Source: Candidatus Micrarchaeaceae archaeon (GTDB taxonomy: Archaea; Micrarchaeota; Micrarchaeia; Micrarchaeales; CABMGC01). Taken from it: a stretch of DNA of 64,000 nucleotides. Numbering within the stretch: the stretch's first letter is position 1; each line of letters starts with the position of its first letter. Below are positions 185 to 61,622 of the stretch, piece after piece. Location: contig JAVZVY010000001.1 in NCBI GenBank assembly GCA_038878295.1, positions 42,163-106,162 on the forward strand, written 5' to 3'. The notes beneath the pieces are model-generated. The model did no database searches. It was not told the origin of the DNA and saw only the letters and a list, made by a program, of their open reading frames with translations. A program made the position numbers and the translations under genes.

Positions 185-1297
185 CTAGTAGCCGTTTGAG
201 ACTTCTATTTGCTTTATAGCAGGCAGGCTGCAGACAGGCGCGGTGTTGTTTATGCTGCCGCATATCATAGCAACGTATAGATCGGCTGCGGCGTATTCTG
301 TCCATGCGAACTGGTCATTTGGATGCGCGAGCTGGCTCAGCACCTGTTCATGAGTCATGTAGGTAAGCGGAAGGCTCTGCCCGTTTATAGGTGTCGAGTT
401 GCCGAAATCCACAGCATCGGCGCCGCCGACATTATAAGCGCCCCATATCGTGTATGGAGTGCCTTGGAATGTGTTGAGCTGCAGTATGAACTTGATTGCA
501 TCCATGTATGCCAGGTTGCCTGTTGAATTTATCTCTTGCTGGATTATGTTCAGCGGTTGGAGGTTGAAGCCGCCGGTTATTGGATCGGTATCCTCAAGGG
601 TGATGAAGTTTATGTATTTGCTGTTGTAGAAATTGCCAAGGTCTATTGAGGATTGGTTGTAGTGAGCCGGAGCCCAGTAAAGCGTTGGAAGATCGCCGTC
701 ACCGAACGAGCTGTAGCCTTTGAAGAGCTCAGTAAAGTTGCCGAACCTTGAAAGCGCTAGAGCCATGGCCCACCTGTTCTCGCCGCAGAATATGCATGTT
801 ATGGAACCTAGGTATATCACGCTGGGCTTTCCGTTAACTACGAACATTGGAACCTTGGTAGCAGAAGCGCCAACGCTGTTGTTGAGCTTGCTGCTTAGGT
901 ACATTTCTCCTGCGGTTTCGAAATACGAATCCGACGCGTTGTTTATTATCGCAAGTTCAGTGCTGTTTAGAGGCGCATTTATATTGGTAAGCCTGCTGCC
1001 GAAAGGCTGTTGCTGGCTGATTATAGGATCTGCCGCGAGGCTGAGTGGCGGCGTTATGAGTGGCGAATTTATGTTGTATCCAGATACGCTTGCTACTGTG
1101 GTTGTTACTGGAGCGTGAGTTGTATAGTTCAGCGCGCTTATCCGGCTGCTAAAATTAAGCACATATGCAATTGAGACTAAAGATGATACTAACGCAGCGA
1201 CGCCTATCACAATTGCTGCATAGGTGAGAATTTTGTTCGATGAGGAAACTGCCTCAAGCTTCTTAACCTCTTTTAGTTCGTTTTCTCTTTCGCTCAT
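185..1297 (-). CDS. Membrane-anchored extracellular thioredoxin-fold protein (DUF929-like), sequon-rich
   Basis: 370 aa. N-terminal anchor ILTYAAIVIGVAALVSSLVSIAYVL. CxxC in a thioredoxin-like context (VIYLGSITCIFCGENRWAMALALSRFGNF). Many N-x-S/T sequons. Family name is from memory of DUF929 proteins, not searched. Confidence 0.55.
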   Translation of the reverse strand: MSERENELKEVKKLEAVSSSNKILTYAAIVIGVAALVSSLVSIAYVLNFSSRISALNYTTHAPVTTTVASVSGYNINSPLITPPLSLAADPIISQQQPFGSRLTNINAPLNSTELAIINNASDSYFETAGEMYLSSKLNNSVGASATKVPMFVVNGKPSVIYLGSITCIFCGENRWAMALALSRFGNFTELFKGYSSFGDGDLPTLYWAPAHYNQSSIDLGNFYNSKYINFITLEDTDPITGGFNLQPLNIIQQEINSTGNLAYMDAIKFILQLNTFQGTPYTIWGAYNVGGADAVDFGNSTPINGQSLPLTYMTHEQVLSQLAHPNDQFAWTEYAAADLYVAMICGSINNTAPVCSLPAIKQIEVSNGY

Positions 1298-1381: not shown

Positions 1382-2143
1382 TTGTACAAAGCAGCGGAAG
1401 GACTTGGCAAGACTACGGAAGCGATAGAGGCGACTGACGCCCATTGCCATCTGAACCTTTTCGAAGACAATGCAGAGATAGTGAAAGCTTCCGCAAAGGC
1501 TGGCGTAGGCACCATAATAACCGCAGGCAGCGACCTGAAAAGCAATTTTGACAACGCAAAAATTGCAGAGGGCATGGTGTTTGCAGTTGTTGGTATAGAT
1601 CCTGAATTTGCGCTTGTGGAGGATTATAGAAGTCTTGAGGCCATTGAGAAGCTTCTAAAAAGCGGCAACCACATTGTAGGCGTAGGCGAGATAGGCTTGG
1701 ATTATAAGAAGGCAACGAGCGAATTGCAGAAAGAAAGGCAGCAGTCGTTTTTCAAGAGGCAACTCGAGATGGCAAAGGATTTTGGCTTGCCTGTGGTGGT
1801 GCATTCGCGCGACGCACTTGATGAAGTTCTCGACACCCTAGAAAGGTTTAATATCAAAAAAGCCATGCTCCATTACTTCGAGGGCGGGCCAGAGCAGGCT
1901 GTGAAGGCAGCCAGCAAAGGCTATCTCATTTCAGTGCCGCCGCTTGCCTCAAGAAAGAGGGATCGTGCCATAAGGAACATAAGCCTTGAGCGCATAGTGG
2001 CTGAAACAGACTCGCCTGTTGTTGGGAAGACTCCTGCAGACGTGCTCATTTCTATAAGAAATATCGCCGAGGCAAAAGGGATAGGCTTTGGAGAAGTCGT
2101 AAGCGCGACTACCAGCAATGCGAAAGAGTTTTTTTATATATGA
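1382..2143 (+). CDS. tatD: TatD-family metal-dependent hydrolase/DNase
   Basis: DAHCHLN (HxH metal site), GEIGLDY, VVHSRDA and AETDSP motifs in TatD order. TTG start as in the ORF track. Confidence 0.85.
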   Translation: MYKAAEGLGKTTEAIEATDAHCHLNLFEDNAEIVKASAKAGVGTIITAGSDLKSNFDNAKIAEGMVFAVVGIDPEFALVEDYRSLEAIEKLLKSGNHIVGVGEIGLDYKKATSELQKERQQSFFKRQLEMAKDFGLPVVVHSRDALDEVLDTLERFNIKKAMLHYFEGGPEQAVKAASKGYLISVPPLASRKRDRAIRNISLERIVAETDSPVVGKTPADVLISIRNIAEAKGIGFGEVVSATTSNAKEFFYI

Positions 2144-2161: not shown

Positions 2162-2266
2162 GGGCCCGTAGCTCAGCTTGGACAGAGCAGCAGCCTTCTA
2201 AGCTGATGGTCGTGGGTTCAAAGGCTTGTCGCGTATAAGCTTAGCGTGAAAATCCCGCCGGGCCCG
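2162..2266 (+). tRNA. tRNA-Arg(UCU) with a 30-nt intron in the T-loop (position 59/60)
   Basis: Acceptor GGGCCCG/CGGGCCC (2162-2168 / 2259-2265). D-arm GCTC..GAGC. Anticodon stem GCAGC/GCTGA with one 27:43 mismatch. Loop CTTCTAA gives anticodon TCT. T-stem GTGGG (2212-2216)/CCCGC (2254-2258). The T-loop TTCAAA|T is interrupted by 2223..2252. Mature length 75 nt. Confidence 0.8.
2223..2252 (+). other. Non-canonical tRNA intron (T-loop, 59/60) with relaxed bulge-helix-bulge
   Basis: T-loop nt TTCA (2217-2220) pair with intron 3' end TGAA (2247-2250), forming a 4-bp central helix. It is flanked by 3-nt bulges AAG (2221-2223) and AAT (2251-2253). The T-stem serves as one outer helix. The outer helix on the 5' side is weak (only CGC 2230-2232 / GCG 2244-2246). 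Confidence 0.65.
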
Positions 2267-2278
2267 ATAGGTGAGCAT

Positions 2279-2545
2279 ATGAAAGAGGATAAAAACTTCG
2301 ATGAAACCATATCGCAGATAAAACAGCAGATAAGCCTGCTGCTGAATGACAACACTGTGCCGAGAAACGTGAAGTCTGCGCTTGAGGAAGCTTCGGCTGC
2401 GCTTGATGGAAAGGAGGGATACGCGGCGCGCGTCTCCACAGCTACATACAAAATAGACGAAGTGAGCAATGACATAAACTTGCCTCCATACGCAAGGACC
2501 ATCGTTTGGAACATACTGAGCATGCTTGAGTCGATAAAGGAGTGA
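2279..2545 (+). CDS. UPF0147-family small protein
   Basis: 88 aa from ATG 2279. The GTG at 2246 in the ORF track would overlap the tRNA 3' exon. Pattern VPRNVKSALEEA...IDEVSNDINLPPYARTIVWNILSMLE matches my memory of the archaeal UPF0147 family. Confidence 0.7.
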   Translation: MKEDKNFDETISQIKQQISLLLNDNTVPRNVKSALEEASAALDGKEGYAARVSTATYKIDEVSNDINLPPYARTIVWNILSMLESIKE

Positions 2546-2546
2546 C

Positions 2547-4061
2547 ATGGGGGAAAACGACAAGGACATTGTGGCTGAGCTTGCCGAAAGGCTCAGCGGC
2601 AGGGTGATTGTAAGCGCGGGCATAGACAGGGAACTCTTCAAAGGCCATGACATAGAGTCGCTAACCGCCAGAATCATAGCCTATTTCGGCGATAGTGACA
2701 GCATCAAAATACTCGACAACAATTCCCTCGCGGAGATTCTGAGCAGGATGAAAGAAGAAAAGACGCCGGTGCCGATAGAGGTGCTGCCTTCGAGCGAGTT
2801 CAAACCTGTCGCGAAGGATGTGGCAAGCGATTTCAAAATAAGGAGCAAGGAGCCAGAAAAAACATCAAGCAGTTCAGATGCTTTCAGGGACTATTTTAGG
2901 AGCAGGTTTTCGAAGATTGCGGCAATAATTGACAAGAATGGCAGTGTCATGACGAATGGCATGATAAACAGCATAGCCAACATTAAAAACTATGCGAATG
3001 GCAGGGAGATAACAATATTCGGCATGGTTTACGACAAGGTCGCTACAAAAAATGGGCACATACTTATCACGCTCGAAGACGAGAGCGGCACCGCCAAGGT
3101 TCTCTTTCCGAGAAGCGAGAGCGGCCCCGGAAAGGAAACGTTCAATGCTGCTAACAGGATCATATTGGATGATATAATAGTAGTAAAGGGCAAGATATCC
3201 GGGTCTTTGCTTATAGCCTCGTCTGTGGTGTGGCCCGATATGCCTATACACAGGGTCGCGCCCACAGAAGAAGACATAGCAATAGCGTTTATATCGGATA
3301 CGCATGTTGGCAGCAAGCTGTTCCTCGAAAAGCAGTTTGACAATCTGCTGAAATGGCTCAACGGCAGAATAGATTACAAAAGAAATCTTGCGGGCAAGAT
3401 AAAATATATAGTCATAAGCGGCGACCTTGTAGACGGCATAGGAGTATATCCAAACCAGGAGAAAGAGCTGACCACGCCAGACATATACAAGCAGTATTCG
3501 ATGTTCTTTGGCCTGCTTGAGGCCATTCCAGAATACGTGCATGTTTTTGTGCTTCCGGGAAACCACGACGCTGTGCAGCGCTCTGAGCCGCAGCCTGAGC
3601 TTCCGAAGGAATTCGTAAGCAACATGAGAGGCAATATGCACATACTGCAAAATCCGAGCAACATCTCGCTTCACGGCGTAAAGGTGCTCGCTTACCACGG
3701 CGCTTCCCTAGATTCGATAATACAGTCTGTTCCGCAATGCAGCTACGCAAAGCCCGAAACCGCCATGGCCGAGCTTCTCAGAAGGAGGCATCTTTCGCCA
3801 ATATACGGAGGCAACATAATTACTCCTACAAAGGACGATGCGCTTGTCATAGACGAAGTGCCAGATATATTCCACGTTGGGCATGTACACAAGAATGCGG
3901 TATCTGAGTATCACGGAACTATAATGATAAACAGTGGCACGTGGCAGGCCCGCACAGCTTTCCAAGTAAAGCAGGGGCACATACCGTCGCCGGCTCTGCT
4001 TCCTGTATACGAAACCAAAAGCCAGAATGTGAGCATCGTGGATTTCAATTCGGTATCGTGA
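2547..4061 (+). CDS. polB: DNA polymerase II (PolD) small subunit DP1
   Basis: 504 aa. Calcineurin-type phosphoesterase motifs FISDTHVGS, SGDLVDG, PGNHD, GHVH. SD-like GGAGTGA just upstream of the ATG. Directly followed by DP2. Confidence 0.93.
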   Translation: MGENDKDIVAELAERLSGRVIVSAGIDRELFKGHDIESLTARIIAYFGDSDSIKILDNNSLAEILSRMKEEKTPVPIEVLPSSEFKPVAKDVASDFKIRSKEPEKTSSSSDAFRDYFRSRFSKIAAIIDKNGSVMTNGMINSIANIKNYANGREITIFGMVYDKVATKNGHILITLEDESGTAKVLFPRSESGPGKETFNAANRIILDDIIVVKGKISGSLLIASSVVWPDMPIHRVAPTEEDIAIAFISDTHVGSKLFLEKQFDNLLKWLNGRIDYKRNLAGKIKYIVISGDLVDGIGVYPNQEKELTTPDIYKQYSMFFGLLEAIPEYVHVFVLPGNHDAVQRSEPQPELPKEFVSNMRGNMHILQNPSNISLHGVKVLAYHGASLDSIIQSVPQCSYAKPETAMAELLRRRHLSPIYGGNIITPTKDDALVIDEVPDIFHVGHVHKNAVSEYHGTIMINSGTWQARTAFQVKQGHIPSPALLPVYETKSQNVSIVDFNSVS

Positions 4062-4065
4062 TGCG

Positions 4066-7000
4066 ATGGATGTTGATGAATACTTCGAAGGGCTCTCAAG
4101 GGAATTCGATAAGGCGTACAAGATAGCCGAGAAAGCTAGGAAAAAGGGAATAGACCCTAATTCCAAAGTTGAGATAGAGGTGGCTCCTGATCTTGCGAGC
4201 AGGGTCGCGGGCATCATAGGCATAAAGGAGCTTAAGGATATCATAACAGGCAAGCAGCGCAATCAAACCCAATCGGAGCTCGCATTCGATGTTGTTAAAG
4301 AGATATGTACAGGCAGCCTGTTCGAAGGCTATGACACGCTGAAGAGAATAGAGTTGGCAATCAGAACAGGCCTCGCGATACTCACGGAAGGCGTGCTTGT
4401 GGCGCCAACAGAGGGCATATACGAAGTCAACATGTACAAAAACGCTGACAATTCAAACTATGTCGCGATAAAATTTGCAGGGCCTATAAGGGGAGCTGGC
4501 GGAACAGCCGCTGCACTATCTGTGGCCCTCGCTGATTATGCCAGGAAGTTCTTCAACATAGGCAGCTACAAGGCTACTGAGGAAGAGATAGAGAGATATG
4601 TCGAAGAGGTTGAGCTATATGATATGAGGCTCGCAAGGCTACAGTACAAGCCGCCTGAAGACGATGTAAGGGTGATTGTGAAAAATTGCCCGATATGCAT
4701 AGATGGTATTCCATCGCGCGAGGCTGAGATAAGCGTACACAGAGACGTCAAAAGAATTACGCTTGATGGAAAAATCGAGAGACTGACAAACAGCGTTAGG
4801 AACGGCATGCCGCTGGTGCTGTGCGAGGGCATAGCGCAGAAGGCTAAGAAAGTGCTTAAGGAGGTGAAGTATGCGGGCCTCGATTGGAGTTGGCTAAACA
4901 ACATAATAAAAATAGAGAAGATAGGAAAGAGCGACGGCACTGAGAAAAGGGATGTTTTTCTTGAGGAGCTTGTAGCAGGAAGGCCAATTCTTGCTTATCC
5001 GAGGCTCAATGGCGGCTTCAGGCTTAGGTACGGCAGAAGCAGGCTTACCGGCATTGCAGCCAAGGGCTTCAATCCGGCGACAATGATTATACTTGATAGT
5101 TTCATAGCTATAGGCACACAGCTCAAAGTTGAGCTTCCCGGAAAAGGCTGCGTTGCAACGCCCGTCGATTCTATAGAGGGGCCTTTCGTGAAGCTTAAAA
5201 GCGGCGAAGCGCTTCGCATCAACAGCGCTGAGCTTGCAAGAAAACTCAAGGACGAAGTAGTTGAAGTGCTATCGCTTGGCGACATCCTTATAACTTATGG
5301 AGATTTTAAAAAATCCAACACGCCATTGCAGCCTTCCAGCTATGTCGAGGAATTTTGGGAGGAGGAGCTTGAGAGCAAAGGTGGGCATGCCGATGCGAAG
5401 AAAGTAACATTTGATTCTGCGTATGCGCTTTCTTTCGAATTTGGAGTGCCGCTACACCCAGCATATACCTTTGAGTTCCAAAATTCTACAAAGGAGGATT
5501 TGGAGTATGCAGCGAAGGCCATAGCAAGAAGTGCAAAAATCACGTACTCTGGAAGCGAAACACTTTTCGGAGTAGAAAAGATGCTCGTTGAAAACGATGA
5601 AAGAATAAAGAGAACATTCGAGCTGATAAACCTGCCGCACAAGATTGAAGAAAACTCTATAGCAATTTATGGCGATTACGCAAAGGCGCTCTTGGCTTCG
5701 TTAGGATTTGCATCAGGAAAGGAAGGTTCTTTGCAGATAAACGAGCTCACCCTCGACAAATATCAGAATGACGCTAAAGATGCGCTTGAATTTGTGAATG
5801 ACGTTTCACCGGTAAGGATTGCCAAGCGCTCCACGTTCATAGGAGCCAGGATAGGCAGGCCGGAAAAGGCCGGAGAGAGGCTGATGAAGCCAGCACCCAA
5901 TGTGCTTTATCCGATAGGCAGTTATGGAGGCAAAGAAAGGAACATATCAAAGGCTTACGCAATATACTCAAAGAGGCTCGAGGAGCCAGCTCTGAAAATA
6001 GAGATTGCAAATTACAAATGCCCGAAATGCAAGAGGATGATAGGCACAAGTTACTGTTACGATTGTAATGAGAAGGCTGTTATAGAAAGGGTCTGCCCGA
6101 AGTGCGGCTTCCGTACCACAGAGGAGACATGCCCTAGATGTGGCGCCGAAACGGTTGCGTATTCAGAGCATGACATAGACGTCATAAAAATGATAAGCGA
6201 CGCTATGAAAAGGCTGGGCATTGCAAAATTGCCAGAAGGCGTCAAAGGCGTCAAAGGCATGACAAACGAATTGAAAGTTGCGGAGCCAATAGAAAAGGGC
6301 ATATTGAGGAGGCTCCACAATGTCCATATATTCAAGGATGGCACTGCAAGATTTGATGCTACGGATGTGCCAGTAACGCATGTATACCCTAGGGAGATTG
6401 GCACAAGCGTTGAGAAGCTTAGGGAACTTGGCTATGATAAAGACTACACTGGTGCGGAGCTTGTGAGCGACGACCAGCTTATCGAGCTAAGGCATCAGGA
6501 TGTGATAATAAATAGAAGAGGCGCTGAATTCTTGCTGAACGTATCGAGGGCGGTAGACGACATGCTTGAGAGGATTTATGGATTGGAACCCTTCTACAAG
6601 GCTGCTACAATAAACGACCTTATCGGCCATCTTGCCATCTCGTTGTCGCCGCATACATCGGCCGGCGTATTGAATAGGATTATAGGTTTTACAGACGCGA
6701 ATGTTGGTTTTGCGCATCCTTATACTATTTCGGCGAGGAGGCGAAACTGCGATGGCGATGAAGATACTATAATGCTCCTCCTTGACGCTCTGATTAATTT
6801 CTCTAGAAGCTATCTGCCGAAAACTACAGGCGGCACGATGGACACGCCGCTTATACTTACACTGCATGTGCACCCTGAAGAGGTAGATGATGAGGTACAC
6901 GCAATGGAGGTTGTGGGCAAGTATCCGCTCGAATTCTATTACAAGACTTTGGAGTATGAATCGCCATCAAATGTTGAGATGGAGCTTGTAGGCGACAGGC

Positions 7001-7515
7001 TAAAGAGTCCGAAGATTTTCAGCGGGCTCGCTTTCACGCATGAATCTTCGGTCAACGCCATAGAGGATTCACCGAAAAAAAGCGAATACACGCTGCTTAA
7101 AAGCATGAAAGAAAAGATAGAAAGGCAATTCGAGCTGACAGACAAGATATATGCTGTAGACAAGAGGGACGCTGCTAAGAAGCTCATTGTGAGCCACTTC
7201 ATACCGGACCTTATAGGCAACCTGCACAAGTTTTCGAAGCAGACCTTCAGGTGCAGCAATTGCAATGCGAAATACAGGCGCGTGCCCCTTAGCGGCAAAT
7301 GCACGAAGTGCGGCGGCAGGCTGCTCCTCACCGTATCTAAGGGCGGTATAGAAAAATATCTTGACACAGCGATAGAACTTGCTGATAGATACGACCTTGA
7401 GGTATACATAAAGCAGAGGCTTAATCTCGTTAAGGAGGAAATCAATGCGACATTTGAAGGCGCTTCTGATAACAATGAAGTACAGGGCCAATTCAACCTC
7501 AGCAGATTTATGTGA
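4066..7515 (+). CDS. polC: DNA polymerase II (PolD) large catalytic subunit DP2
   Basis: 1149 aa. Blocks GPIRGAGGTAAA, RLNGGFRLRYGRSR, IGRPEKAGER, ISARRRNCDGDEDT. Several CxxC zinc modules (CPKCKR..CYDC, CPKCG..CPRCG, CSNCN..CTKCGG). No intein-like insertion. Confidence 0.95.
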   Translation: MDVDEYFEGLSREFDKAYKIAEKARKKGIDPNSKVEIEVAPDLASRVAGIIGIKELKDIITGKQRNQTQSELAFDVVKEICTGSLFEGYDTLKRIELAIRTGLAILTEGVLVAPTEGIYEVNMYKNADNSNYVAIKFAGPIRGAGGTAAALSVALADYARKFFNIGSYKATEEEIERYVEEVELYDMRLARLQYKPPEDDVRVIVKNCPICIDGIPSREAEISVHRDVKRITLDGKIERLTNSVRNGMPLVLCEGIAQKAKKVLKEVKYAGLDWSWLNNIIKIEKIGKSDGTEKRDVFLEELVAGRPILAYPRLNGGFRLRYGRSRLTGIAAKGFNPATMIILDSFIAIGTQLKVELPGKGCVATPVDSIEGPFVKLKSGEALRINSAELARKLKDEVVEVLSLGDILITYGDFKKSNTPLQPSSYVEEFWEEELESKGGHADAKKVTFDSAYALSFEFGVPLHPAYTFEFQNSTKEDLEYAAKAIARSAKITYSGSETLFGVEKMLVENDERIKRTFELINLPHKIEENSIAIYGDYAKALLASLGFASGKEGSLQINELTLDKYQNDAKDALEFVNDVSPVRIAKRSTFIGARIGRPEKAGERLMKPAPNVLYPIGSYGGKERNISKAYAIYSKRLEEPALKIEIANYKCPKCKRMIGTSYCYDCNEKAVIERVCPKCGFRTTEETCPRCGAETVAYSEHDIDVIKMISDAMKRLGIAKLPEGVKGVKGMTNELKVAEPIEKGILRRLHNVHIFKDGTARFDATDVPVTHVYPREIGTSVEKLRELGYDKDYTGAELVSDDQLIELRHQDVIINRRGAEFLLNVSRAVDDMLERIYGLEPFYKAATINDLIGHLAISLSPHTSAGVLNRIIGFTDANVGFAHPYTISARRRNCDGDEDTIMLLLDALINFSRSYLPKTTGGTMDTPLILTLHVHPEEVDDEVHAMEVVGKYPLEFYYKTLEYESPSNVEMELVGDRLKSPKIFSGLAFTHESSVNAIEDSPKKSEYTLLKSMKEKIERQFELTDKIYAVDKRDAAKKLIVSHFIPDLIGNLHKFSKQTFRCSNCNAKYRRVPLSGKCTKCGGRLLLTVSKGGIEKYLDTAIELADRYDLEVYIKQRLNLVKEEINATFEGASDNNEVQGQFNLSRFM

Positions 7516-11877: not shown

Positions 11878-11968
11878 AGGATTAATAACTTTATCAACAA
11901 ATAAAAGAATATATGATGAAAAATAATAATCGCTGAGCTATTCGCTGTGAAGAAAGATAGGCGGTCTG

Positions 11969-12835
11969 ATGTATTTGAAAGAAAGCGTCATGCATAAGCT
12001 AGGAAAACGTGCTATATCTGTGAGCGATATCGCCAGCCAGTTCTGGTGCGAGAAGCAAATGGAATTAAACTACATGTATGGCAAAAGGTATACTGAAGCA
12101 ATGGCTATGGGGAGCAAAATCCACGGAGAGCTCGAAGAGGCCGCGCATGAGAAGCTTGATGCGGAACCGAAGACATTTACAGATTCTTTATACAAATCTG
12201 CATATGAAAACTACTCAGTAATAAGAAAACTTGTGGAGATTGGCGTCGGAAGGGAATTGAAAATTTTTGGATCTATAAATGGTTACGCACTCTCAGGCCA
12301 GATAGACGAGCTTCTTCTTAAAAACGGAAAAATTACAGTGGTCGAAAACAAGACCACATCATCTCAAGGCTCTCCTGAGTATGCGTATATTAAATCGCAC
12401 AAGGTGCAGGTCCTTCTCTATGTAAAGATGCTCGACGATATAAAAAGCGGCAAATATAGTTATGATAACTTTTCTGCAAGCTATAACATTGCAGAGAGGA
12501 AATTGTCAAAAGAATTTTCGTCAAGATTAAATGAGCTCGGAATCAGCACCGAAAAAGCAAGCATTGAGGATGTGTTCAAGAGGATGTTCGATTCCATATT
12601 GCAGCTTCCGGAAATAAGTAAGAGCACAGAATTGCATTACATTGATAAGGTCACACATAAGCAGGTCTATTCAATCGGAATAGATTACAAAGAGGATGAA
12701 GTTAGGAATATGCTTGTATATTCGATGAAGTACTGGAATGGGGAAAGAGAGGCAAAACCTGTAGATGAAGAAGAAAAATGGAAGTGCACTTCTTGCAGGT
12801 TTTTCGGCAAGGAATGTAAGGTATGGTGGTCATAA
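11969..12835 (+). CDS. Stand-alone Cas4-like PD-(D/E)xK nuclease with 4-Cys cluster (DUF83-like)
   Basis: 288 aa. N-terminal Cys (SQFWCEKQ). Nuclease core GQIDEL...VVENKT (D..ExK). QxxxY motif (VQVLLY). C-terminal CTSCRFFGKEC. The stop TAA is directly followed by the alaS ATG. Confidence 0.7.
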   Translation: MYLKESVMHKLGKRAISVSDIASQFWCEKQMELNYMYGKRYTEAMAMGSKIHGELEEAAHEKLDAEPKTFTDSLYKSAYENYSVIRKLVEIGVGRELKIFGSINGYALSGQIDELLLKNGKITVVENKTTSSQGSPEYAYIKSHKVQVLLYVKMLDDIKSGKYSYDNFSASYNIAERKLSKEFSSRLNELGISTEKASIEDVFKRMFDSILQLPEISKSTELHYIDKVTHKQVYSIGIDYKEDEVRNMLVYSMKYWNGEREAKPVDEEEKWKCTSCRFFGKECKVWWS

Positions 12836-19219: not shown

Positions 19220-19343
19220 CGCCAGGGTTGGGATTTGAACCCAAAATTCCGCGAGGAAACCGGTTTACCTTTTGCATCACTGATCAGCTCTTGAAGCTTT
19301 GCAAGCTCAAGACCGGCGCATTACCGGATTCTGCCACCCTGGC
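19220..19343 (-). tRNA. tRNA-Ser(UGA) with a 40-nt canonical (37/38) intron
   Basis: Minus strand. Acceptor GCCAGGG/CCCTGGC. Anticodon stem CCGGT/ACCGG, loop CTTGAG|..|A (anticodon TGA at 19309..19307). Long variable arm TTCC-TCGC-GGAA. T-arm TTGGG-TTCAAAT-CCCAA. Discriminator G. Confidence 0.85.
19266..19305 (-). other. tRNA-Ser intron (40 nt) with bulge-helix-bulge
   Basis: Intron CTTGCAAAGCTTCAAGAGCTGATCAGTGATGCAAAAGGTA. The inner helix TTGCA/TGCAA is 5 bp. The central helix (loop nt CTTG with intron AAGG) pairs 3 of 4 positions. The 3-nt bulges are AGC and TAA. Confidence 0.7.
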
Positions 19344-19403: not shown

Positions 19404-20873
19404 TTAGGATGCCGTAACGTTTGCAGTTGCGTATGCGCCCTCTTCGCCAATCAGCACAACTTTATAGGTAGCTCCTGGTATTGGAGTTATGATTAAGTGG
19501 CCGTTTGCATACTCTATCTTTCCTGAAAATGAAAATGTTGCCTGGCTTCCTGGTGAAAGCACGTAGCCTACATTTCCCTCAAACATTTGATCAGAGTTGA
19601 AAGGTAGTGCAAGCGTGCCGTTAGATTCCACTATGAAGTTCAGCACGCGCATGTGCTGCTGCTCAAACTTTATCCTTTCTGCGGCCATTTCCTGGAATTT
19701 CTCAGAGAACTGGCTGACATTCAGGCCAAGCGCACTGGCATTCTGCGAAATCAGCTTCCAGTCATTGTATACGTTGCTCCAGTGATCCTCGACTTCGCCA
19801 AGGTTGCTGCTGCTGTTGACCATAATGCTGAAGTTCGCTGCCATGCTGGCATCTTCGCCTCTTAACTTGCCTGCGTATTCAGATATGTAAGCGCTTACGT
19901 TCGCCGAGCTGTTTACATCGATGCCATGTTTTTCCGCTGACTGTATGAGCGCAGATGTGGCGATTGAAACATTTGGAATATTAGCACCGAGCGCGTCAGA
20001 TATTTCAGAGATGTTAAAGTTGTATGGCTCGCCGGGATGAGATTTAAAATTGAAGCCGCCCTGATTGTCTTCGAATGGCTGCATAGGCACGATTATTTTC
20101 GAGAGAGCTATTGATTCGTTTCCGAAAAGCATAATGTGGTTTATCGTTACGCTACTATTCGAACCATCCTTGACGGTTACGGAGAATGAAGTGGTGTTGT
20201 TTGCGCCTAAGGAAAGGGATTCTGAAAGTATTGTAAGATTTGGTTTTATCTTTTCAATCTCGTGTTTGTACGTCTGAGTAAGCTTATAAACTGTTCCCGG
20301 CGCTTTAACAGATACGTTTGCTGATGGCACTACAACAGCTTTTAATGACGGCACGAGCACAAATATAGTTGAATTTGTCGAATATATTGTTACCACAGTG
20401 GGCGAAAGATCCGCAAGCAGGCTCGATGTAGCATTGACTTTGCCCTTCGCAATCACGGCATTTACCTGTTGCTTAGGTATGGTTACAGGATAGACTGTGC
20501 CATTAATTGCTATGCTCGCAGAGGTTATGTTGAACTGCACGATATTTATGCTAGAGTTTATTGGCAGATTGGCTGCACCTATAATCTCGGTAAAGTTTAC
20601 CAAACGTATTAGGTCTATAGTTCCGGAACTTGAAACATTTACCCAACCAGACGCGTTTCCTGCGCCAGTATAGTGGACGCGAAGCGAAGAGTAAGAGATG
20701 TTCAAAGAGGTTGTTCCGGTTGGCACGTATGGCGGATCCGCGAGCTGTATCGGAACAGCGATTAAGGATGAGATTACCGGTTTCGCGGGAGCGCTGGGCT
20801 GTGAAACAGCTACGTATACCACTATGCCTATTATTACAACAATCGCGATTACGTACCAAATGGCTCTGTTCAT
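19404..20873 (-). CDS. Membrane-anchored, heavily sequon-decorated surface protein (DUF4382-like N-domain)
   Basis: Start placed at ATG 20873 (MNRAIWYVIAIVVIIGIVVYVAV = signal-anchor); the ORF track extends to 20945 with a non-ATG start. More than 20 N-x-S/T sequons. Segment PIQLADPP...LRVHYTG..SGWVNV..GTIDLIRLVN resembles DUF4382 as I remember it. Confidence 0.6.
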   Translation of the reverse strand: MNRAIWYVIAIVVIIGIVVYVAVSQPSAPAKPVISSLIAVPIQLADPPYVPTGTTSLNISYSSLRVHYTGAGNASGWVNVSSSGTIDLIRLVNFTEIIGAANLPINSSINIVQFNITSASIAINGTVYPVTIPKQQVNAVIAKGKVNATSSLLADLSPTVVTIYSTNSTIFVLVPSLKAVVVPSANVSVKAPGTVYKLTQTYKHEIEKIKPNLTILSESLSLGANNTTSFSVTVKDGSNSSVTINHIMLFGNESIALSKIIVPMQPFEDNQGGFNFKSHPGEPYNFNISEISDALGANIPNVSIATSALIQSAEKHGIDVNSSANVSAYISEYAGKLRGEDASMAANFSIMVNSSSNLGEVEDHWSNVYNDWKLISQNASALGLNVSQFSEKFQEMAAERIKFEQQHMRVLNFIVESNGTLALPFNSDQMFEGNVGYVLSPGSQATFSFSGKIEYANGHLIITPIPGATYKVVLIGEEGAYATANVTAS

Positions 20874-20957
20874 CGAATCGATATATTTATGAAAAACATT
20901 AATAATGGTTCCGCTTCGCTTCGGCCGAATGGATGGCGCTCGCAAAGCTGAAAATCT

Positions 20958-21324: not shown

Positions 21325-24042
21325 TCATGATTTAACATTATGCACAACATTATTCTGAGTGGTCTTGATCGAGAAGTTTTCTTTTCTGAAAGCAGCGTAT
21401 AGCGGCTCTTCTAGCTCTCTGTTTCTTTCCAGTGTTGCTCGCAATATTGGCTTGTACGTGCTTTTGATTGTTTTGTTATTATGCAAATCGATTTCGGTTA
21501 TTGCAAATCCTCTTGTTGCATCGCTTATCGCTTGCGGAAATTCAGAGACATACGTGTTTTCGTCTTCATACTGCATTGCCGGAGTTTCAAACGTTTGAAG
21601 ATCGCCGCTTATAGTATGCTTAGGCTCGTGGTAGTGAGCCTCAAACACAGCTGCGACAGGCACACGTTTTTGCAGTATCGCTTGCGGCTTTTGTTCGAGT
21701 GCTCTGGCAAGTTTATGCTGAACCCTTATTGTATCTTCATTATCTATGTTTATGTTGCCTATGCCATAGTCTTCTCCAGTAACAACTATTACTCTGCCTT
21801 CACTTACGCCTTTGCCTTTCAGGTAGAGTTTGATTATGCCAGCTAGTTCAGTGGCCTCATCGTACTCGTGTGTTTTGTTTGTTTTATTGAAGTGATTGCC
21901 ACTGACTATCCATATATAGCCATTTTTGTTTATAGTTTCATCTATTACTGGCAAAAGTTTTTGAATTACAGATTCAGCTTGGGCACTTATGGTTTGTATG
22001 ATGCTCACTCTGTTGAAGAACTTGACAAGCTCTGCGTTTATCTGATCGCCACTTAATCCGAGCTTTTGGAGATAGTTACGATATTCGTAGAAGGTGTTTG
22101 GCAATGTAAGCTGCTGTGGCGAATTTTTGAAGTTTGCTAGGTTACCTTCTATTATGTCACCATTAAGCAGCAATATTGGAATCCTACTAGAATCCAAATT
22201 GTGTATGTACTCTTTGCCTTTTTGTACAGCTTTTTCAAGCAAATCGTTTTCGGCCCAGCCACCCTCGTGGATGTCGCTCATTGCAACCACTGCAAGTTTC
22301 TTGATGTTATTTGGAATCTCCTTAGCCGCATATGGTATAAGCTCCAATATCTGCTTTGTTGAAAGCTTCGGAATTTCGTAACTCTTTAACTCTGATGGTC
22401 TCTTTTGCTCCAGGATGAGTTTTTCCAGTTTTGGGTCTTTGACTATCTCTTCGGCTTCCGTATCTGCAGTATGACTGCTTTGCGCAGTTTTGTTTGCTTT
22501 TTTGAGTTTGATCAGTTCTGTTGCCACGGCAAGCTCTCTTTTGTCGGCTTCAATGCGTTTTATCTTTAGAAACTCGCTCGTGATTGAGGTATGCGCAACA
22601 GAGCCATCTGGAAATATATCAACTATGCTTGCTGAAGAATCTGGAGGGAGCTTTTCTACGGTTTTTGTGGTTCTTGTGATTATTTTTTGGTTATACAGCT
22701 CGCCAAGCGCTTCTCTGTCTGCAAATGTGCCTTTTGCGAGCGATACGAATATTTTTTCCCTGTCAAGATCTAAAGTTGGCTCAATGGAGAATGATGTAAA
22801 AACATTTCCGCCGCTGATGAGCATTGTTAAAGGTTTCTGCAATACTTCCCTTTTGCCTATTGTTTCAACATACTTGTAAAAGTTGTCAGCGGCTAAGGTG
22901 TTGCTATTTTTATTGTACATCTTTGATGATGTGCCTAGTATCGGCTCCGCCTTCAATGCTATTGTGAATTCAAAGCCGTTTAGCTTTTTTTCTAAAAATT
23001 TTATGTCTTTCTCTTGTATCGTGACTCTGTGCTTCCTGTCTATGTCTTTTATGAGAGAGTAATAGTCGATCTTCGCAAGATTATATATCATCTTTTCAAT
23101 GTCTGGCTTGCTTCGCACATTGTGCGTAAACGCTTCTATGTGCGCCGATCCGCGCCTTACCATTGATTCAAATTCAAGATTCCCTAACTCGCGAAGTCGC
23201 TTGTTCGCGGCTCTTATCAAGTTCGATATCGCTTTTTTTTCACTTGTAGCTTTCTGAAAGGCTTCTTCGCTGCCATTGCCATTGTTTAGGGATCTGGTCT
23301 TTTCACGCTTCTCGTCGAGCTCTTTTTTCAACTTTGCTATCATCGCTTTGAGTTTATCCTGACTTAGCCTTTCCACGTGCGCTTCCACCAGCTCTTTCAG
23401 CATCTTAGCTCTTTCCTTATATTCCGCACGCTCTGCCTCGTTGATCTTAAGCTTCTCATTTGCATTCCTGTATTCCTCGATCAACCTCTCGTCTTTTGGA
23501 TTTTTATCAATCTGCTCCCTAAGTGCCGCAATCGAAGCTTTTGTGCTTTTTATTATCGCTGATGAGGCGCTGATGCTTGTATACATCCTTTCAAGCTCAT
23601 TCTGAAGCCATTTATGCCGGTGGCTATAGGCTATGCGCAAGTCTCTTGCTATAGCCTCTATATTTTGTGAATCCGCAATTCCAGGCACAAAATATATTTC
23701 CGGATCATTAAGGGCTTTGTTTAATCTTTCAACATGCGGTTTGATTATTGCAGGCACGCTTACCATGAAGTTGATGCCCTCTTTAATCATAAGAAGTTGA
23801 CTTTCGTGCTCATATTGTGGAATCCAGGGGATAAGTCCCGAATGCCCGCCGAAGTATACAACCATGTCTGGTTTTTGCACATTAGGGTCATTGAAATATT
23901 CTGCCAGGCCTATAAAATTGTCTGGGCTGAAAGCATACGTACCGGCAAAGAGATCGGATAGAACAAGAATTCTATATGGACGCGCGCCACCCTTTACGGG
24001 CGTGTTTAGCGAAATAGGAGTTTCCGCTATTTTATCCCCCAC
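21325..24042 (-). CDS. Large coiled-coil protein with N-terminal degenerate and C-terminal intact metallophosphoesterase domains
   Basis: 905 aa, GTG start, no Cys. C-terminal motifs AMSDIH (aa 587-592), NGDIIEGN (627-634), SGNHF (714-718), EAHYHE (801-806). N-terminal look-alikes lack the ligands: ILVLSDLF (aa 25-32), YFGGHSG (63-69), VPGIAD (119-124). K/E/R/L heptad-rich segments at aa ~145-295 and ~495-560. Confidence 0.7.
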   Translation of the reverse strand: MGDKIAETPISLNTPVKGGARPYRILVLSDLFAGTYAFSPDNFIGLAEYFNDPNVQKPDMVVYFGGHSGLIPWIPQYEHESQLLMIKEGINFMVSVPAIIKPHVERLNKALNDPEIYFVPGIADSQNIEAIARDLRIAYSHRHKWLQNELERMYTSISASSAIIKSTKASIAALREQIDKNPKDERLIEEYRNANEKLKINEAERAEYKERAKMLKELVEAHVERLSQDKLKAMIAKLKKELDEKREKTRSLNNGNGSEEAFQKATSEKKAISNLIRAANKRLRELGNLEFESMVRRGSAHIEAFTHNVRSKPDIEKMIYNLAKIDYYSLIKDIDRKHRVTIQEKDIKFLEKKLNGFEFTIALKAEPILGTSSKMYNKNSNTLAADNFYKYVETIGKREVLQKPLTMLISGGNVFTSFSIEPTLDLDREKIFVSLAKGTFADREALGELYNQKIITRTTKTVEKLPPDSSASIVDIFPDGSVAHTSITSEFLKIKRIEADKRELAVATELIKLKKANKTAQSSHTADTEAEEIVKDPKLEKLILEQKRPSELKSYEIPKLSTKQILELIPYAAKEIPNNIKKLAVVAMSDIHEGGWAENDLLEKAVQKGKEYIHNLDSSRIPILLLNGDIIEGNLANFKNSPQQLTLPNTFYEYRNYLQKLGLSGDQINAELVKFFNRVSIIQTISAQAESVIQKLLPVIDETINKNGYIWIVSGNHFNKTNKTHEYDEATELAGIIKLYLKGKGVSEGRVIVVTGEDYGIGNINIDNEDTIRVQHKLARALEQKPQAILQKRVPVAAVFEAHYHEPKHTISGDLQTFETPAMQYEDENTYVSEFPQAISDATRGFAITEIDLHNNKTIKSTYKPILRATLERNRELEEPLYAAFRKENFSIKTTQNNVVHNVKS

Positions 24043-26171: not shown

Positions 26172-26196
26172 GAGCTCACTTCGTTAGAGATTAAGG

Positions 26197-26269
26197 CGCC
26201 TCGGTCGGGATTCGAACCCGAGTCGCAAGCGTGACAGGCTCGCATGCTGGACCACTACACTACCGAGGC
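26197..26269 (-). tRNA. tRNA-Asp(GUC)
   Basis: Minus strand: GCCTCGG TA GTGT AGTGGTCCA GCAT G CGAGC CTGTCAC GCTTG CGAC TCGGG TTCGAAT CCCGA CCGAGGC G. Full cloverleaf, no intron. Confidence 0.92.
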
Positions 26270-26524: not shown

Positions 26525-26612
26525 TCCCGTTGGGGTGAATTGAACACCCAACCTGCCGGTAACCACTCAAGCAAGCTACAGCCGGCCGCTCTAGCCATTG
26601 AGCTACAACGGG
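26525..26612 (-). tRNA. tRNA-Tyr(GUA) with a 15-nt canonical intron
   Basis: Minus strand. Acceptor CCCGTTG/CAACGGG, with the C1:G72 pair expected for archaeal tRNA-Tyr. D-arm GCTC..GAGC. Anticodon stem GCCGG/CCGGC, loop CTGTAG|intron|A. T-arm GGGTG-TTCAATT-CACCC. Discriminator A. Confidence 0.85.
26561..26575 (-). other. tRNA-Tyr intron (15 nt)
   Basis: CTTGCTTGAGTGGTT inserted after G37. The central helix CTGT/GTGG is mostly G:U, so the BHB is weak. Confidence 0.6.
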
Positions 26613-47206: not shown

Positions 47207-47491
47207 AGAGACAAATGAGCAACTAAATGCACTAAGCTAGAAAACTAGCAATTTAGGGAACCTTGGCGCAGCTGAATTCTGCAATTACCGGAATTTTTAT
47301 ACCTTTTCTATTCAGCAAAGCAGGTGATGCCGCCGCTGGCTATTGCTTACTGCCACTATTCCATCTATTTCATTTTGTCAATAGAATCAGCCATCGGCAA
47401 GCTTTTTTGAGGGCATCATACTATAAGGAGTTGCCTCGAAGAAAGAAAGTAGCGTGTCTTGTCGACTGCCCAAACAATACAGAGTACAGAA

Positions 47492-47566
47492 TGGGCCCGG
47501 AGAGATTTGAACTCTCGACCTACGGCTTATAAGACCGCCGCTCTAACCATGCTGAGCTACGAGCCC
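47492..47566 (-). tRNA. tRNA-Ile(UAU)
   Basis: Minus strand: GGGCTCG TA GCTC AGCATGGTTA GAGC G GCGGT CTTATAA GCCGT AGGTC GAGAG TTCAAAT CTCTC CGGGCCC A. Anticodon TAT at 47531..47529. No intron. Overlaps two spurious ORF-track entries. Confidence 0.88.
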
Positions 47567-47629
47567 AAACTAACAATATTATATTTTGCTATACTTATTT
47601 ATTTTATACCTTATCGCTGGTGCTCATTG

Positions 47630-59630: not shown

Positions 59631-61622
59631 CTATTGAGGCTTTATACCGCTGCTCCTGAAGTGTCTCTTCGAAGCAAAGTATGCTATTGCTATTATTATT
59701 ATCACGGCGAGTATCTCTGCAATGTTGTACGCTGAGAATACTGTTATTGTTGCAGATGTAGCACCAGCAGAAGTCGCAATAGGGTAGTCTATGCCTAGAT
59801 ACTTTGCATAGCCCTTTGAATAGCCGTATGGCACATTCTCAACTGTTGCGACGCCACTGCTGTTCGTTGTCAGCGTTTCTATGCTGTAGTTGGAGAACTG
59901 CAGAGTCACGTTTGTGCTTATCGGGCTTCCAAATGCATCATGCACAACTATGGTTATTGGATATACGGGCAGCTGGACCTGAATGGTAGACGGCGCAGAA
60001 GCAGTGAACTGCTGGCTTAGCGGTATCTGCACGCCATTATAATATGCGCCAGTTATCTCATAACTTTCATTTGATGAAACAAATACTTTGCTTCCTGTTT
60101 CCTTGCCGTTGATATAAAAGCGGCTCACGCTTATCGGGTTGCCGCCTGCGTTTGCAGCCGTAAGCGAAACCAGAACCTGCTTGCTGAATATGGCTTCTAT
60201 GCTTACCGGCGACTCGACAACCAGGTGTATTGTGGGGCTGTCGTTGCCATTGTTCCAGCCAACGAATGCATATCTTTCTGTGCCTGACACATTTTCGATA
60301 GTCTTCATTGGATAGAGGGTTATGAGCGTGCCGGTATTGTACCAGCCTGAGCCATACGTTCCTATGTATTGATACGAGGATGTGGCGTTTACGTAAAATT
60401 CATGTTGCCATATGGCCTCCAGTGTTGTCGGGCCTGTTATCTTTATTATGCCTGTAGCATTGGCATTGCCGTTGCTCCATCCTGCAAATACGAACCTGGA
60501 TGTTGCATTCTGATATACTGTCGTTGATTTTGTGCCATATTGGAGGATGGTTCCGTTGTTGTACCAGCCGCTTCCAGTGGTATTGCTATAAGCAGAAGAG
60601 ACATTCAGGTAGTATTGGGTAGCCCATTCCGCTTCTTCTGTTATGTTGCTGTCAAGTGATATTGTTGTTGTGTTTGCCGGGCCTGTATACGAGCCGTAGC
60701 CTGTGCCTACCCAACCAAGGAATAGCGCCCTCTTGCCGTTGCTTATCTGGACAACGCTAGGAGCCGATATCTGCACTTGCGAGTAAGCAGCGTACTCAAC
60801 TGTGCCGGATATGTTTCCGTATTGCGAAATCGTGCGCAACGCGTAGCCGAGAGACCAAAGCAGAGTACCGTTCTCTGGCTGAGGCAGGCCGCTGCCAACC
60901 TCGAAATAATTTATTCTATTGTCTACCTCCTTGACGCCGTATGGGTTTTTAAGCATTTTTTCGCTGCCAACCCCGTATCCTACGTAAGCGTAGCCTTTTG
61001 AAACGCTCATGAAGCGGCCATCTTTGTAAGCGGAGAAATTTGAAAAAAGAACGGGATTGACTTGCACAGATGATGTGCTCGTATTAGCGACTTCCGCAAA
61101 TGCTACTGGAGAGAGGCTGCCTGATGAAGATGCACCCAGATCTGCGCTTCCCACAACCTTTCCGTTAAACAAAAAGTACCAGGTGTTGCCTATGGAATAG
61201 AAAGAGTAAGTGTTAAATGTGCCGTTTGTGCCAGCGGAATTGTCAGGTCCTAATGCCCCAAGAAAGCCGCCATTGTAGTTTGGCGGGAAATATTCATAAA
61301 ACCATTCAGCGTCGCCTGCATTGATATATTCGTGACTCGAGCACCCTGACTGCGTGCAGAGCGACGGGTAATATCCTGATTGGTTTTCTATTACGTAGCC
61401 CGCCTGCAGGAACGCGCCGTTCTGTATCGTTTCGCCAACCCAAAAGCCTAGCGAACCGCTTGCGGGGATTGGCTGCTTTACTGTCTGTATAGTTATGCTT
61501 GCGCCGTTGTTTTGCGCTGCGGCGCTTCCAGCTCGAGCTCCGGTCTGGAACCAATACTGTGCGTTTGCAGTAGCAGCAAGCATAAGGATCGAGACCGCAA
61601 TGAATAAGCTATATTTTCTCAT
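59631..61622 (-). CDS. Secreted, C-terminally anchored surface glycoprotein with three F-x-GW beta-repeat modules
   Basis: 663 aa. Signal peptide MRKYSLFIAVSILMLAATANA. C-terminal TM ILAVIIIIAIAYFA plus a basic tail. Repeats LFLGWVGTGYGSY, FVFAGWSNGNANA, YAFVGWNNGNDSP. About 20 sequons. Confidence 0.65.
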   Translation of the reverse strand: MRKYSLFIAVSILMLAATANAQYWFQTGARAGSAAAQNNGASITIQTVKQPIPASGSLGFWVGETIQNGAFLQAGYVIENQSGYYPSLCTQSGCSSHEYINAGDAEWFYEYFPPNYNGGFLGALGPDNSAGTNGTFNTYSFYSIGNTWYFLFNGKVVGSADLGASSSGSLSPVAFAEVANTSTSSVQVNPVLFSNFSAYKDGRFMSVSKGYAYVGYGVGSEKMLKNPYGVKEVDNRINYFEVGSGLPQPENGTLLWSLGYALRTISQYGNISGTVEYAAYSQVQISAPSVVQISNGKRALFLGWVGTGYGSYTGPANTTTISLDSNITEEAEWATQYYLNVSSAYSNTTGSGWYNNGTILQYGTKSTTVYQNATSRFVFAGWSNGNANATGIIKITGPTTLEAIWQHEFYVNATSSYQYIGTYGSGWYNTGTLITLYPMKTIENVSGTERYAFVGWNNGNDSPTIHLVVESPVSIEAIFSKQVLVSLTAANAGGNPISVSRFYINGKETGSKVFVSSNESYEITGAYYNGVQIPLSQQFTASAPSTIQVQLPVYPITIVVHDAFGSPISTNVTLQFSNYSIETLTTNSSGVATVENVPYGYSKGYAKYLGIDYPIATSAGATSATITVFSAYNIAEILAVIIIIAIAYFASKRHFRSSGIKPQ

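Follow-up and report, generated by a model that had tools for sequence, protein, structure and literature searches.

The stretch of DNA analysed here (64 kb, referred to below as the window) belongs to a MAG of Candidatus Micrarchaeaceae, and positions 2162-2266 of its plus strand were confirmed to be a real tRNA-Arg(UCU) gene with a 30-nt intron in the T-loop. Very probably the gene is functional, and the insert is a protein-spliced intron at tRNA position 59/60 with a relaxed hBH motif, cut by an EndA of the epsilon2 type. An earlier note on this DNA had remarked that non-canonical tRNA introns are known in a few ultrasmall archaea; this fits the origin of the window, which belongs to the lineage of ARMAN-2.

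Gene anatomy and genomic context

The region reads GGGCCCGTAGCTCAGCTTGGACAGAGCAGCAGCCTTCTAAGCTGATGGTCGTGGGTTCAAA / GGCTTGTCGCGTATAAGCTTAGCGTGAAAA / TCCCGCCGGGCCCG (5' exon / intron / 3' exon). The 5' exon (2162-2222, plus strand, 61 nt, tRNA positions 1-59) contains the 5' strand of the acceptor stem, the D-arm, the anticodon arm, the variable loop, the 5' strand of the T-stem and T-loop bases 1-6 (TTCAAA). It is followed by the intron (2223-2252, 30 nt, tRNA position 59/60), the excision of which restores the cloverleaf. The 3' exon (2253-2266, 14 nt), a unique exact match in the window, consists of T-loop base 60 (T), the T-stem 3' strand CCCGC, the acceptor 3' strand CGGGCCC and the discriminator G; a CCA is not encoded at the 3' end of the gene. 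The 13-mer TCCCGCCGGGCCC occurred exactly once in the window, and when up to 2 mismatches were allowed 2 matches were found, against 0.39 expected.

With 2223-2252 removed, ARAGORN called a 75-nt tRNA-Arg(tct) with a full cloverleaf (7-bp acceptor stem, 4-bp D-stem, 5-bp anticodon stem, 5-bp T-stem GUGGG/CCCGC and T-loop UUCAAAU), whereas it gave no tRNA for the unspliced sequence 2162-2266. This bears out the claim of the earlier note that a tRNA-Arg(UCU) cloverleaf exists only after the 30-nt T-loop insert has been taken out. In the drawing of the spliced product, the anticodon (TCT, 2197-2199, plus strand), which reads AGA and AGG, lies in a loop of 7 nt closed by a stem of 5 bp, as in a standard cloverleaf. 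The first pair of this stem is a G-A mismatch (G27-A43), common to all relatives, among them an intronless Methanosarcinales gene.

The locus was not among the tRNAs reported in the window by ARAGORN (3 found) or by Rfam at the gathering threshold (4 found). In a permissive Rfam scan the tRNA model scored 28.9 bits against a threshold of 29, covering only the 5' part of the gene (2162-2220), and this match carried a forced, wrong acceptor stem. A trial in which segments were deleted from the Ser tRNA before ARAGORN was run was uninformative within the anticodon loop. Introns were present in 3 of the 5 tRNA genes of the window, a proportion close to that in ARMAN-2, for which 56% of the tRNA genes are reported to be disrupted (PMC3239211).

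In the 32 long ORFs of the window, AGA accounted for 202 of the 610 Arg codons (33%) and AGG for 269 of the 610. Since AGA makes up a third of the Arg codons of the window, the UCU anticodon is needed. ARAGORN and Rfam found no other tRNA-Arg within the 64-kb window, and hence no intact second tRNA-Arg(UCU), a finding that the earlier note had named as one that would speak against its reading. Presumably tRNA-Arg(UCU) is single-copy in the genome, of which these 64 kb were scanned.

Upstream of the tRNA gene lie a DUF929 gene (185-1297, minus strand) and a TatD-family gene (1382-2143, plus strand; Pfam PF01026, E = 8.6e-52), the latter being a conserved neighbour that marks the orthologous locus. 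Downstream of the tRNA, after 12 nt, a UPF0147 gene (2279-2545, plus strand) begins, and next to it, on the same strand, come the genes for the small (DP1, 2547-4061) and large (DP2, 4066-7515) subunits of PolD. The DP1 of the window is identical or nearly so to proteins of several NCBI Candidatus Micrarchaeaceae archaeon MAGs. Proteins of the window are carried by the assemblies GCA_038878475.1, GCA_038878195.1, GCA_038877415.1, GCA_038877855.1 and GCA_038877035.1. An ORF starting with GTG (2246-2545), which overlaps the 3' exon, was rejected, the called gene starting at the ATG at 2279. A possible archaeal TATA box, TTTATATA, was read at 2133-2140 (plus strand); the centre of this putative box lies about 26 nt upstream of the 5' end of the tRNA, within the last codons of the TatD gene.

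Splicing motif and predicted cleavage sites

The minimum-energy fold of the 105-nt pre-tRNA (-45.9 kcal/mol, z = -3.1, none of 200 shuffles as stable) closes both the acceptor stem and the T-stem. The T-stem 5' strand GTGGG (2212-2216) pairs with CCCGC (2254-2258), giving helix h of the motif, on the exon side; this pairing was found in 100% of the relatives. Stacked on the T-stem is a central helix of four pairs (U2217-A2250, U2218-A2249, C2219-G2248 and A2220-U2247), in which TTCA (2217-2220, T-loop positions 54-57) is paired with TGAA (2247-2250) within the intron. The earlier note had already proposed this 4-bp helix, which is present in the minimum-energy fold with pair probabilities of 0.72-0.80.

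The two splice sites differ. On the 3' side, A-A/T (2251-2253) is a clean bulge of 3 nt, with the central helix on one side of it and the T-stem on the other, and the cut is predicted after 2252. The 5' site, A-A/G (2221-2223), with a predicted cut after 2222, is relaxed: in the minimum-energy structure two unpaired A's face five unpaired bases (TAGCG, 2242-2246) and G2223 is paired, and the 3-nt bulge of A2221, A2222 and G2223 is clean only if the RNA takes up a fold lying 1.2 kcal/mol higher. The T-arm with the intron, folded at minimum energy (-12.9 kcal/mol), contains an intron hairpin, GGCUUGU/AUAAGCU (2223-2241; 2223-2229 paired with 2235-2241), which is not flush with the central helix. 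An alternative, near-strict helix, GCU (2224-2226) with AGC (2243-2245), has the bulge AAG plus one extra bulged G and costs 1.2 kcal/mol more. In the intron of the window the strict hBHBh' motif, which has two helices flanking a 3-4-3 core, was not found, as there are no flush pairs and G2224 faces G2246. Because the intron-side helix is not flush (five unpaired bases or an extra bulged G), the intron was filed as relaxed (hBH-like). The earlier note was right to call the motif relaxed and one helix imperfect. Its label HBh' should have been hBH or BHL, the names by which the ARMAN-2 paper denotes a motif with exon-side helix, 3' bulge and central helix kept (PMC3239211), and it is the inner helix, on the side of the intron, that is imperfect rather than an outer one.

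With the T-stem stacked on UUCA/UGAA beside the 3-nt bulge AAU, both cuts are placed at tRNA position 59/60. With AAA at the end of the exon and AAAA at that of the intron, four excisions (56/57 to 59/60) are equivalent in sequence; the choice of 59/60 among them follows from the bulge geometry, with cleavage after the second bulge base. In the ARMAN-2 enzyme's crystal structure with RNA, bulge base 1 is clamped, base 2 carries the attacking 2'-OH and base 3 stacks on the catalytic histidine, and these roles of the three bulged bases set the cut after the second (PMC12397907). Cuts are thus predicted at 2222/2223 and 2252/2253, which is where the bulges AAG and AAT had led the earlier note to put the cleavage sites. 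A motif scanner with strict geometry returned many weak chance candidates per tRNA and is no evidence alone; only the 61/30 solution also restored the tRNA.

It is improbable that the intron, while real, is cut at 56/57, 57/58 or 58/59, or by way of a structure other than the proposed helix. The equivalence of the four excisions, all giving one mature sequence, leaves room for such a reading, as do helix pair probabilities that are below 1. Only 59/60 fits the rule by which, in a 3-nt bulge abutting a 4-bp helix, base 2 is the last before the cut (PMC12397907). Moreover, several relatives are unambiguous in this respect (L115, with the intron end AAAG; L067, with AAAT; L142 and L151, with GAT), and in these only 59/60 yields UUCAAAU. 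Little would change by this reading, the mature tRNA being the same for all four positions.

Comparison with related loci

Matches to a full-length template for the Micrarchaeota-type gene in genome and metagenome collections were pooled, giving 32 loci. The intron was present at exactly 59/60 in 31 of these 32, with 20 distinct introns of 13-36 nt; these counts do not represent independent events, since the related loci share descent. Such recurrence shows that the arrangement is not due to chance. Mean identity was about 97% for the exons and about 39% for the intron bodies, the latter being approximately the level of unrelated short sequences.

All four pairs of the central helix were present in all 20 distinct introns, with UGAA, UGGA or UGAG opposite UUCA. 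The 3' bulge was AAU, AUU or AGU, and the 5' bulge AAA, AAG, AAC or AAU. As the T-loop side is invariant, the helix displays one-sided, wobble-compatible changes and never double compensatory ones; as support for the helix the comparison thus offers its conservation in a background that has diverged, and not double covariation of its two strands. In the acceptor stem a double compensatory change spanning the intron was observed: the pair is G7-C66 in the other loci and A7-U66 in L014. Each of the eight spliced variants tested was called tRNA-Arg(tct), and in the spliced alignment 95% of the cloverleaf pair cells were standard, as against 27-48% with the partners slid, G27-A43 being the sole exception.

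At the loci long enough to be testable, the tRNA adjoins TatD and usually DUF929 too, with UPF0147 downstream in most. In L003, which is conspecific, the intron differs from that of the window by one base. The order TatD-tRNA-UPF0147 was also found in L005-L007 (DP1 78% identity, 27-nt intron) and in L009-L010 (DP1 57% identity, 16-nt intron). A loose DNA pattern, GCNGCCTTCTAAGCNGNNGGTCNNGGGTTC, gave at least 120 matches in the genome collection, among those listed mostly bacterial intronless tRNA-Arg genes, and since the pattern is too loose this search is uninformative on intron frequency. Five archaeal loci were among the matches listed (L014, L052, L067, L101 and L115). Four of them (L014, L052, L067 and L115) bear the intron, and in each of these four the tRNA adjoins TatD, with DUF929 as well in three. 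The intronless Methanosarcinales gene mentioned above came from this pattern search.

A tighter pattern, allowing 0-30 inserted bases, yielded 19 loci in the metagenome collection, 17 with and 2 without an intron. One locus, L154 (VFSW01100371.1), which is syntenic (DUF929-TatD-tRNA), is without the intron and reads GGGTTCAAATCCCGC, identical to the predicted exon junction (TTCAAAT). At the level of DNA, this ortholog directly confirms the mature junction that was predicted. It also implies that the intron was gained or lost within the group.

The motif itself varies. Strict 3-4-3 motifs, in which 4-5 pairs make up a flush inner helix, occur in L014, L115, L052 and L141/L152, and many of the 13-nt introns of the relatives are bare loops; the intron of the window is among the longest and is relaxed. 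The TatD proteins of the relatives are only 37-54% identical to that of the window, yet the intron site is common to the syntenic loci. Intron bodies range from bare loop to hairpin, with strict and relaxed motifs, and at least one lineage is precisely without the intron. On balance we favour the view that the 59/60 intron of tRNA-Arg(UCU) is an old, vertically inherited feature of Micrarchaeota, fixed at its locus while its body turns over freely. If this is true, it stands in contrast to the proposed recent origin of non-canonical introns by transposition, and the loci constitute a natural series of substrates from which the actual demands of an epsilon2 endonuclease on the 5' splice site could be learned.

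These comparisons bear on whether the gene is alive. Had the T-loop insertion inactivated it, AGA would be decoded by another copy of tRNA-Arg(UCU) elsewhere in the genome. The unspliced locus is indeed called by neither ARAGORN nor Rfam, the 5' splice site is imperfect, and the search for a second copy covers 64 kb, out of a genome that in Micrarchaeota is typically about 1 Mb in size. In a dead gene the exons would hardly have stayed so nearly identical while TatD and the intron bodies diverged to the extent given above. Nor would the 4-bp helix and 3-nt bulge be expected to be kept in 20 of 20 distinct introns, or a compensatory change to arise in an acceptor stem whose strands lie on either side of the intron. 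Furthermore, ARMAN-2 was reported with 43 tRNA genes, almost the full required set (PMC3239211), which in our reading leaves little room for duplicate isoacceptors. We therefore regard a dead gene as highly improbable, and a functional, spliced tRNA-Arg(UCU) gene remains the preferred reading.

It is scarcely conceivable that the insert is never removed and that the tRNA functions with its T-loop enlarged to 37 nt or with an extra arm: the variable length (13-36 nt) and the ortholog without an insert fit a spacer that is removed better than a structural part of the tRNA, what is conserved is precisely what a splicing endonuclease needs, and the tRNA elbow requires a contact between T-loop and D-loop that could not form with an insert in the T-loop. 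A split or permuted tRNA was rejected, the exons being adjacent and in order, and so were a self-splicing intron, an intron-encoded gene and a small RNA, for which 30 nt is too short.

Splicing endonuclease

No EndA gene was found in the window, either with phmmer, using the EndA of M. jannaschii and Micrarchaeota EndAs, or in the gene annotation. Homologues of the ARMAN-2 enzyme were searched for with a query comprising most of its EndA sequence, recovered from a PDB alignment (4fz2, 9w2k). This search gave 1415 homologues. The best 120 of the 1415 were 368-406 aa long and covered 97-100% of the three-unit query; their named sources were mostly Micrarchaeaceae, Micrarchaeia or Micrarchaeota, with some Marsarchaeota and one Nitrososphaerota.

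One of the homologues, P0225 (386 aa; Micrarchaeaceae MAG GCA_038729305.1, contig JAVYSH010000024.1), is encoded in the gene order RadA, TP_methylase, EndA. Its residues 2-386 align with residues 3-387 of ARMAN-2 EndA (4fz2_A) with E = 1.3e-165 and 63% identity, so it is a single polypeptide spanning all three units of the ARMAN-2 enzyme (about 390 aa). Conserved in it are Y236, H251 and K282, which are catalytic, Y160 and K161 of the ARMAN-specific loop, and also K228, R275 and W384 (roles of the residues taken from PMC12397907). The accession of P0225 (MEM0149560.1) lies 820 numbers from MEM0148740.1, a DP1 (P0270) that is identical to the DP1 of the window at 503 of 504 positions. Judged by this proximity of the accessions, P0225 and P0270 probably come from one MAG that is conspecific with the window.

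Four other proteins considered as the EndA of the genome of the window (P0171, P0141, P0223 and P0125) were rejected after being traced to other assemblies, and a second homologue search singled out no protein as the EndA of this genome. By homology, an epsilon2-type EndA was shown to be present in the lineage. The earlier note had suggested identifying the EndA architecture of the genome, and P0225, from a probably conspecific MAG, points to the epsilon2 type.

Proposed processing route

The steps described here are established for the family and are transferred by analogy to the gene of the window, for which cleavage, ligation and the order of the steps are inferred. Transcription, possibly from the putative box at 2133-2140, would give a precursor whose T-arm folds into the hBH motif, the T-stem being extended by UUCA/UGAA so as to mimic the anticodon arm of a canonical 37/38 intron. 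A homodimeric, three-unit EndA of the epsilon2 type, with its broad substrate range, would cut after the second base of each bulge. Cleavage after A2222 and A2252 would leave 2',3'-cyclic phosphate and 5'-OH ends, which an RtcB-type ligase would join (reviewed in PMC4090602), giving the T-loop UUCAAAU and the predicted spliced junction ...GGGUUCAAA/UCCCGCC.... As no CCA is encoded, it would have to be added, presumably after ligation. The T-loop would be absent before splicing, and we speculate that its modification and the formation of the tRNA elbow would follow afterwards.

Relation to known systems

T-loop introns at 59/60 and an epsilon2 enzyme have been known in this lineage since 2011 and the structure of the enzyme with RNA since 2025, and the gene described here is nothing new in kind. 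In ARMAN-2, 59/60 introns were described in tRNA-Cys(GCA), where the intron is 13 nt with a relaxed hBH/BHL motif, and in tRNA-Pro(GGG) (Fujishima et al. 2011, PMC3239211), and its three-unit epsilon2 endonuclease cuts a 59/60 hBH substrate in vitro (PMC3239211).

The pre-tRNA-Cys(GCA) of ARMAN-2, from a related lineage (Candidatus Micrarchaeum acidiphilum), resembles the gene of the window in the position of the intron (59/60) and in the motif, both having the T-stem, a 3-nt bulge and a 4-bp helix of T-loop bases, with a relaxed 5' side. The length of its intron is matched by many relatives of the gene of the window, whose 13-nt introns are often bare loops, as this published substrate is. 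The gene of the window differs in its identity (Arg UCU) and in having a 30-nt intron with an internal hairpin, and its cleavage is predicted only. Pre-tRNA-Pro(GGG) likewise is a tRNA of the Micrarchaeum lineage with a 59/60 T-loop intron. It has two T-loop introns (53/54 and 59/60) and a strict hBHBh' motif (PMC3239211), whereas the gene of the window has a single, relaxed one; strict versions of the Arg intron, comparable to those of pre-tRNA-Pro(GGG), are the ones in L014, L115, L052 and L141/L152.

The geometry is identical to that of a canonical 37/38 intron once the anticodon arm is transposed onto the T-arm. In both, a 5-bp stem carries a loop whose bases 1-4 are paired to the intron and which is cut after base 6 and before base 7. 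The difference is that the intron of the window sits in the T-loop instead of the anticodon loop.

In published work, non-canonical sites are reported to be cut only by broad-specificity enzymes, of the (alpha-beta)2 and epsilon2 types (PMC5829648). Thermoproteales and other Crenarchaeota share with the present case introns outside 37/38, often relaxed, and many disrupted tRNA genes. Their enzyme is a heterotetrameric (alpha-beta)2 with a Crenarchaea-specific loop, whereas the lineage of the window has the epsilon2 type. The non-canonical introns of Crenarchaeota have been proposed to be recent gains by transposition, as the proposal is cited in PMC3239211; unlike in that proposal, the intron of the window occurs at one syntenic locus across relatives in spite of the divergence of their TatD proteins.

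For annotation, the consequence is that ARAGORN and an Rfam scan at threshold miss the only gene of the window able to read AGA, and tRNA-Arg(UCU) would seem to be missing from a MAG annotated by no other means than such tools. What is added here is the comparative series, with 20 distinct introns at one orthologous site, strict and relaxed, and one intronless ortholog, which could be of use for work on how introns persist and on how much variation at the 5' splice site is tolerated in a substrate.

Evolution of the tRNA-Arg(UCU) locus

The gene order around tRNA-Arg(UCU) (window 2162-2266, + strand), with its 30-nt intron at position 59/60 (2223-2252), is retained in a related locus, L154 (VFSW01100371.1), on a contig with a G + C content of 53%. 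This locus is syntenic (DUF929-TatD-tRNA-Arg(UCU)) and its tRNA, located at about 2700-2775, is intronless, showing that the 59/60 intron was gained or lost inside the group.

Two further loci with the Micrarchaeota-type order DUF929-TatD-tRNA-Arg, including the 59/60 intron, were found on contigs titled 'Methanothrix sp.' (L067, JAVYSI010000001.1) and 'Candidatus Marsarchaeota archaeon' (L115, JAMCZL010000037.1), and their proteins are 40-58% identical to those of the window. The taxonomic labels of these contigs, or their binning, look doubtful. Several homologues of DP1 (the small subunit of PolD) and of the tRNA splicing endonuclease EndA that carry a Marsarchaeota label also group with Micrarchaeota proteins.

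The first anticodon-stem pair of tRNA-Arg(UCU) is a G-A mismatch (window 2190/2206, tRNA positions 27/43). Since this mismatch is kept in all relatives as well as in the intronless tRNA-Arg(UCU) of a member of the Methanosarcinales (L101), it appears to be a trait of the isoacceptor.

Junction of tRNA-Arg(UCU) and UPF0147

Only 12 nt separate the 3' end of the tRNA from the ATG of UPF0147 (window 2266-2281). This stretch holds no T-run and contains a Shine-Dalgarno-like GGTGA (2270-2274), of which the extended form GGTGAG is conserved in two related loci (L005 and L009). The longest UPF0147 ORF (2246-2545, + strand) has a GTG start at 2246, within the intron and 3' exon of the tRNA; as called in identical contigs, the gene has an ATG start at 2279, encodes 88 aa and does not overlap the tRNA. 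A single transcript may cover the tRNA, UPF0147 and both PolD genes, in which case the 5' end of the mRNA would come from 3' processing of the tRNA.

Other tRNA genes of the window

Introns are present in 3 of the 5 tRNA genes of the window, which is near the 56% reported for ARMAN-2 (PMC3239211). In the tRNA-Ser(UGA) gene (19220-19343, - strand), the variable arm is long and a 40-nt intron occupies the canonical position, 37/38; there was no ARAGORN call for this gene, and it was detected by Rfam (46.8 bits). Its intron motif consists of a central helix CUUG/AAGG, with a G-A mismatch beside the 5' bulge, and an inner helix UUGCA/UGCAA. The tRNA-Tyr(GUA) gene (26525-26612, - strand) has a canonical 15-nt intron with a strict motif, and tRNA-Asp(GUC) (26195-26269, - strand) is intronless. 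The tRNA-Ile(UAU) gene (47491-47567, - strand) is likewise intronless, whereas that of ARMAN-2 has a 25-nt intron.

GCTTG followed by AAGCTT is common to the Arg and Ser introns, and both the Ser and Tyr introns start with CTTGC, directly after A36-G37. This likeness could be due to chance, to a shared structural constraint or to common descent of the introns.

Other features

For sR2, a family of archaeal C/D-box small RNAs, a match at 11909-11971 (+ strand; E = 0.017) was below threshold, with 29.2 bits versus a gathering score of 42. It is located just upstream of an Exo5-like gene, slightly overlapping the gene start at 11969. Three large ORFs, all on the - strand, have called products without a recorded Pfam match: 19404-20945 (513 aa in the ORF list; the gene call in a near-identical contig gives 489 aa), 21325-24042 (905 aa) and 59631-61622 (663 aa).
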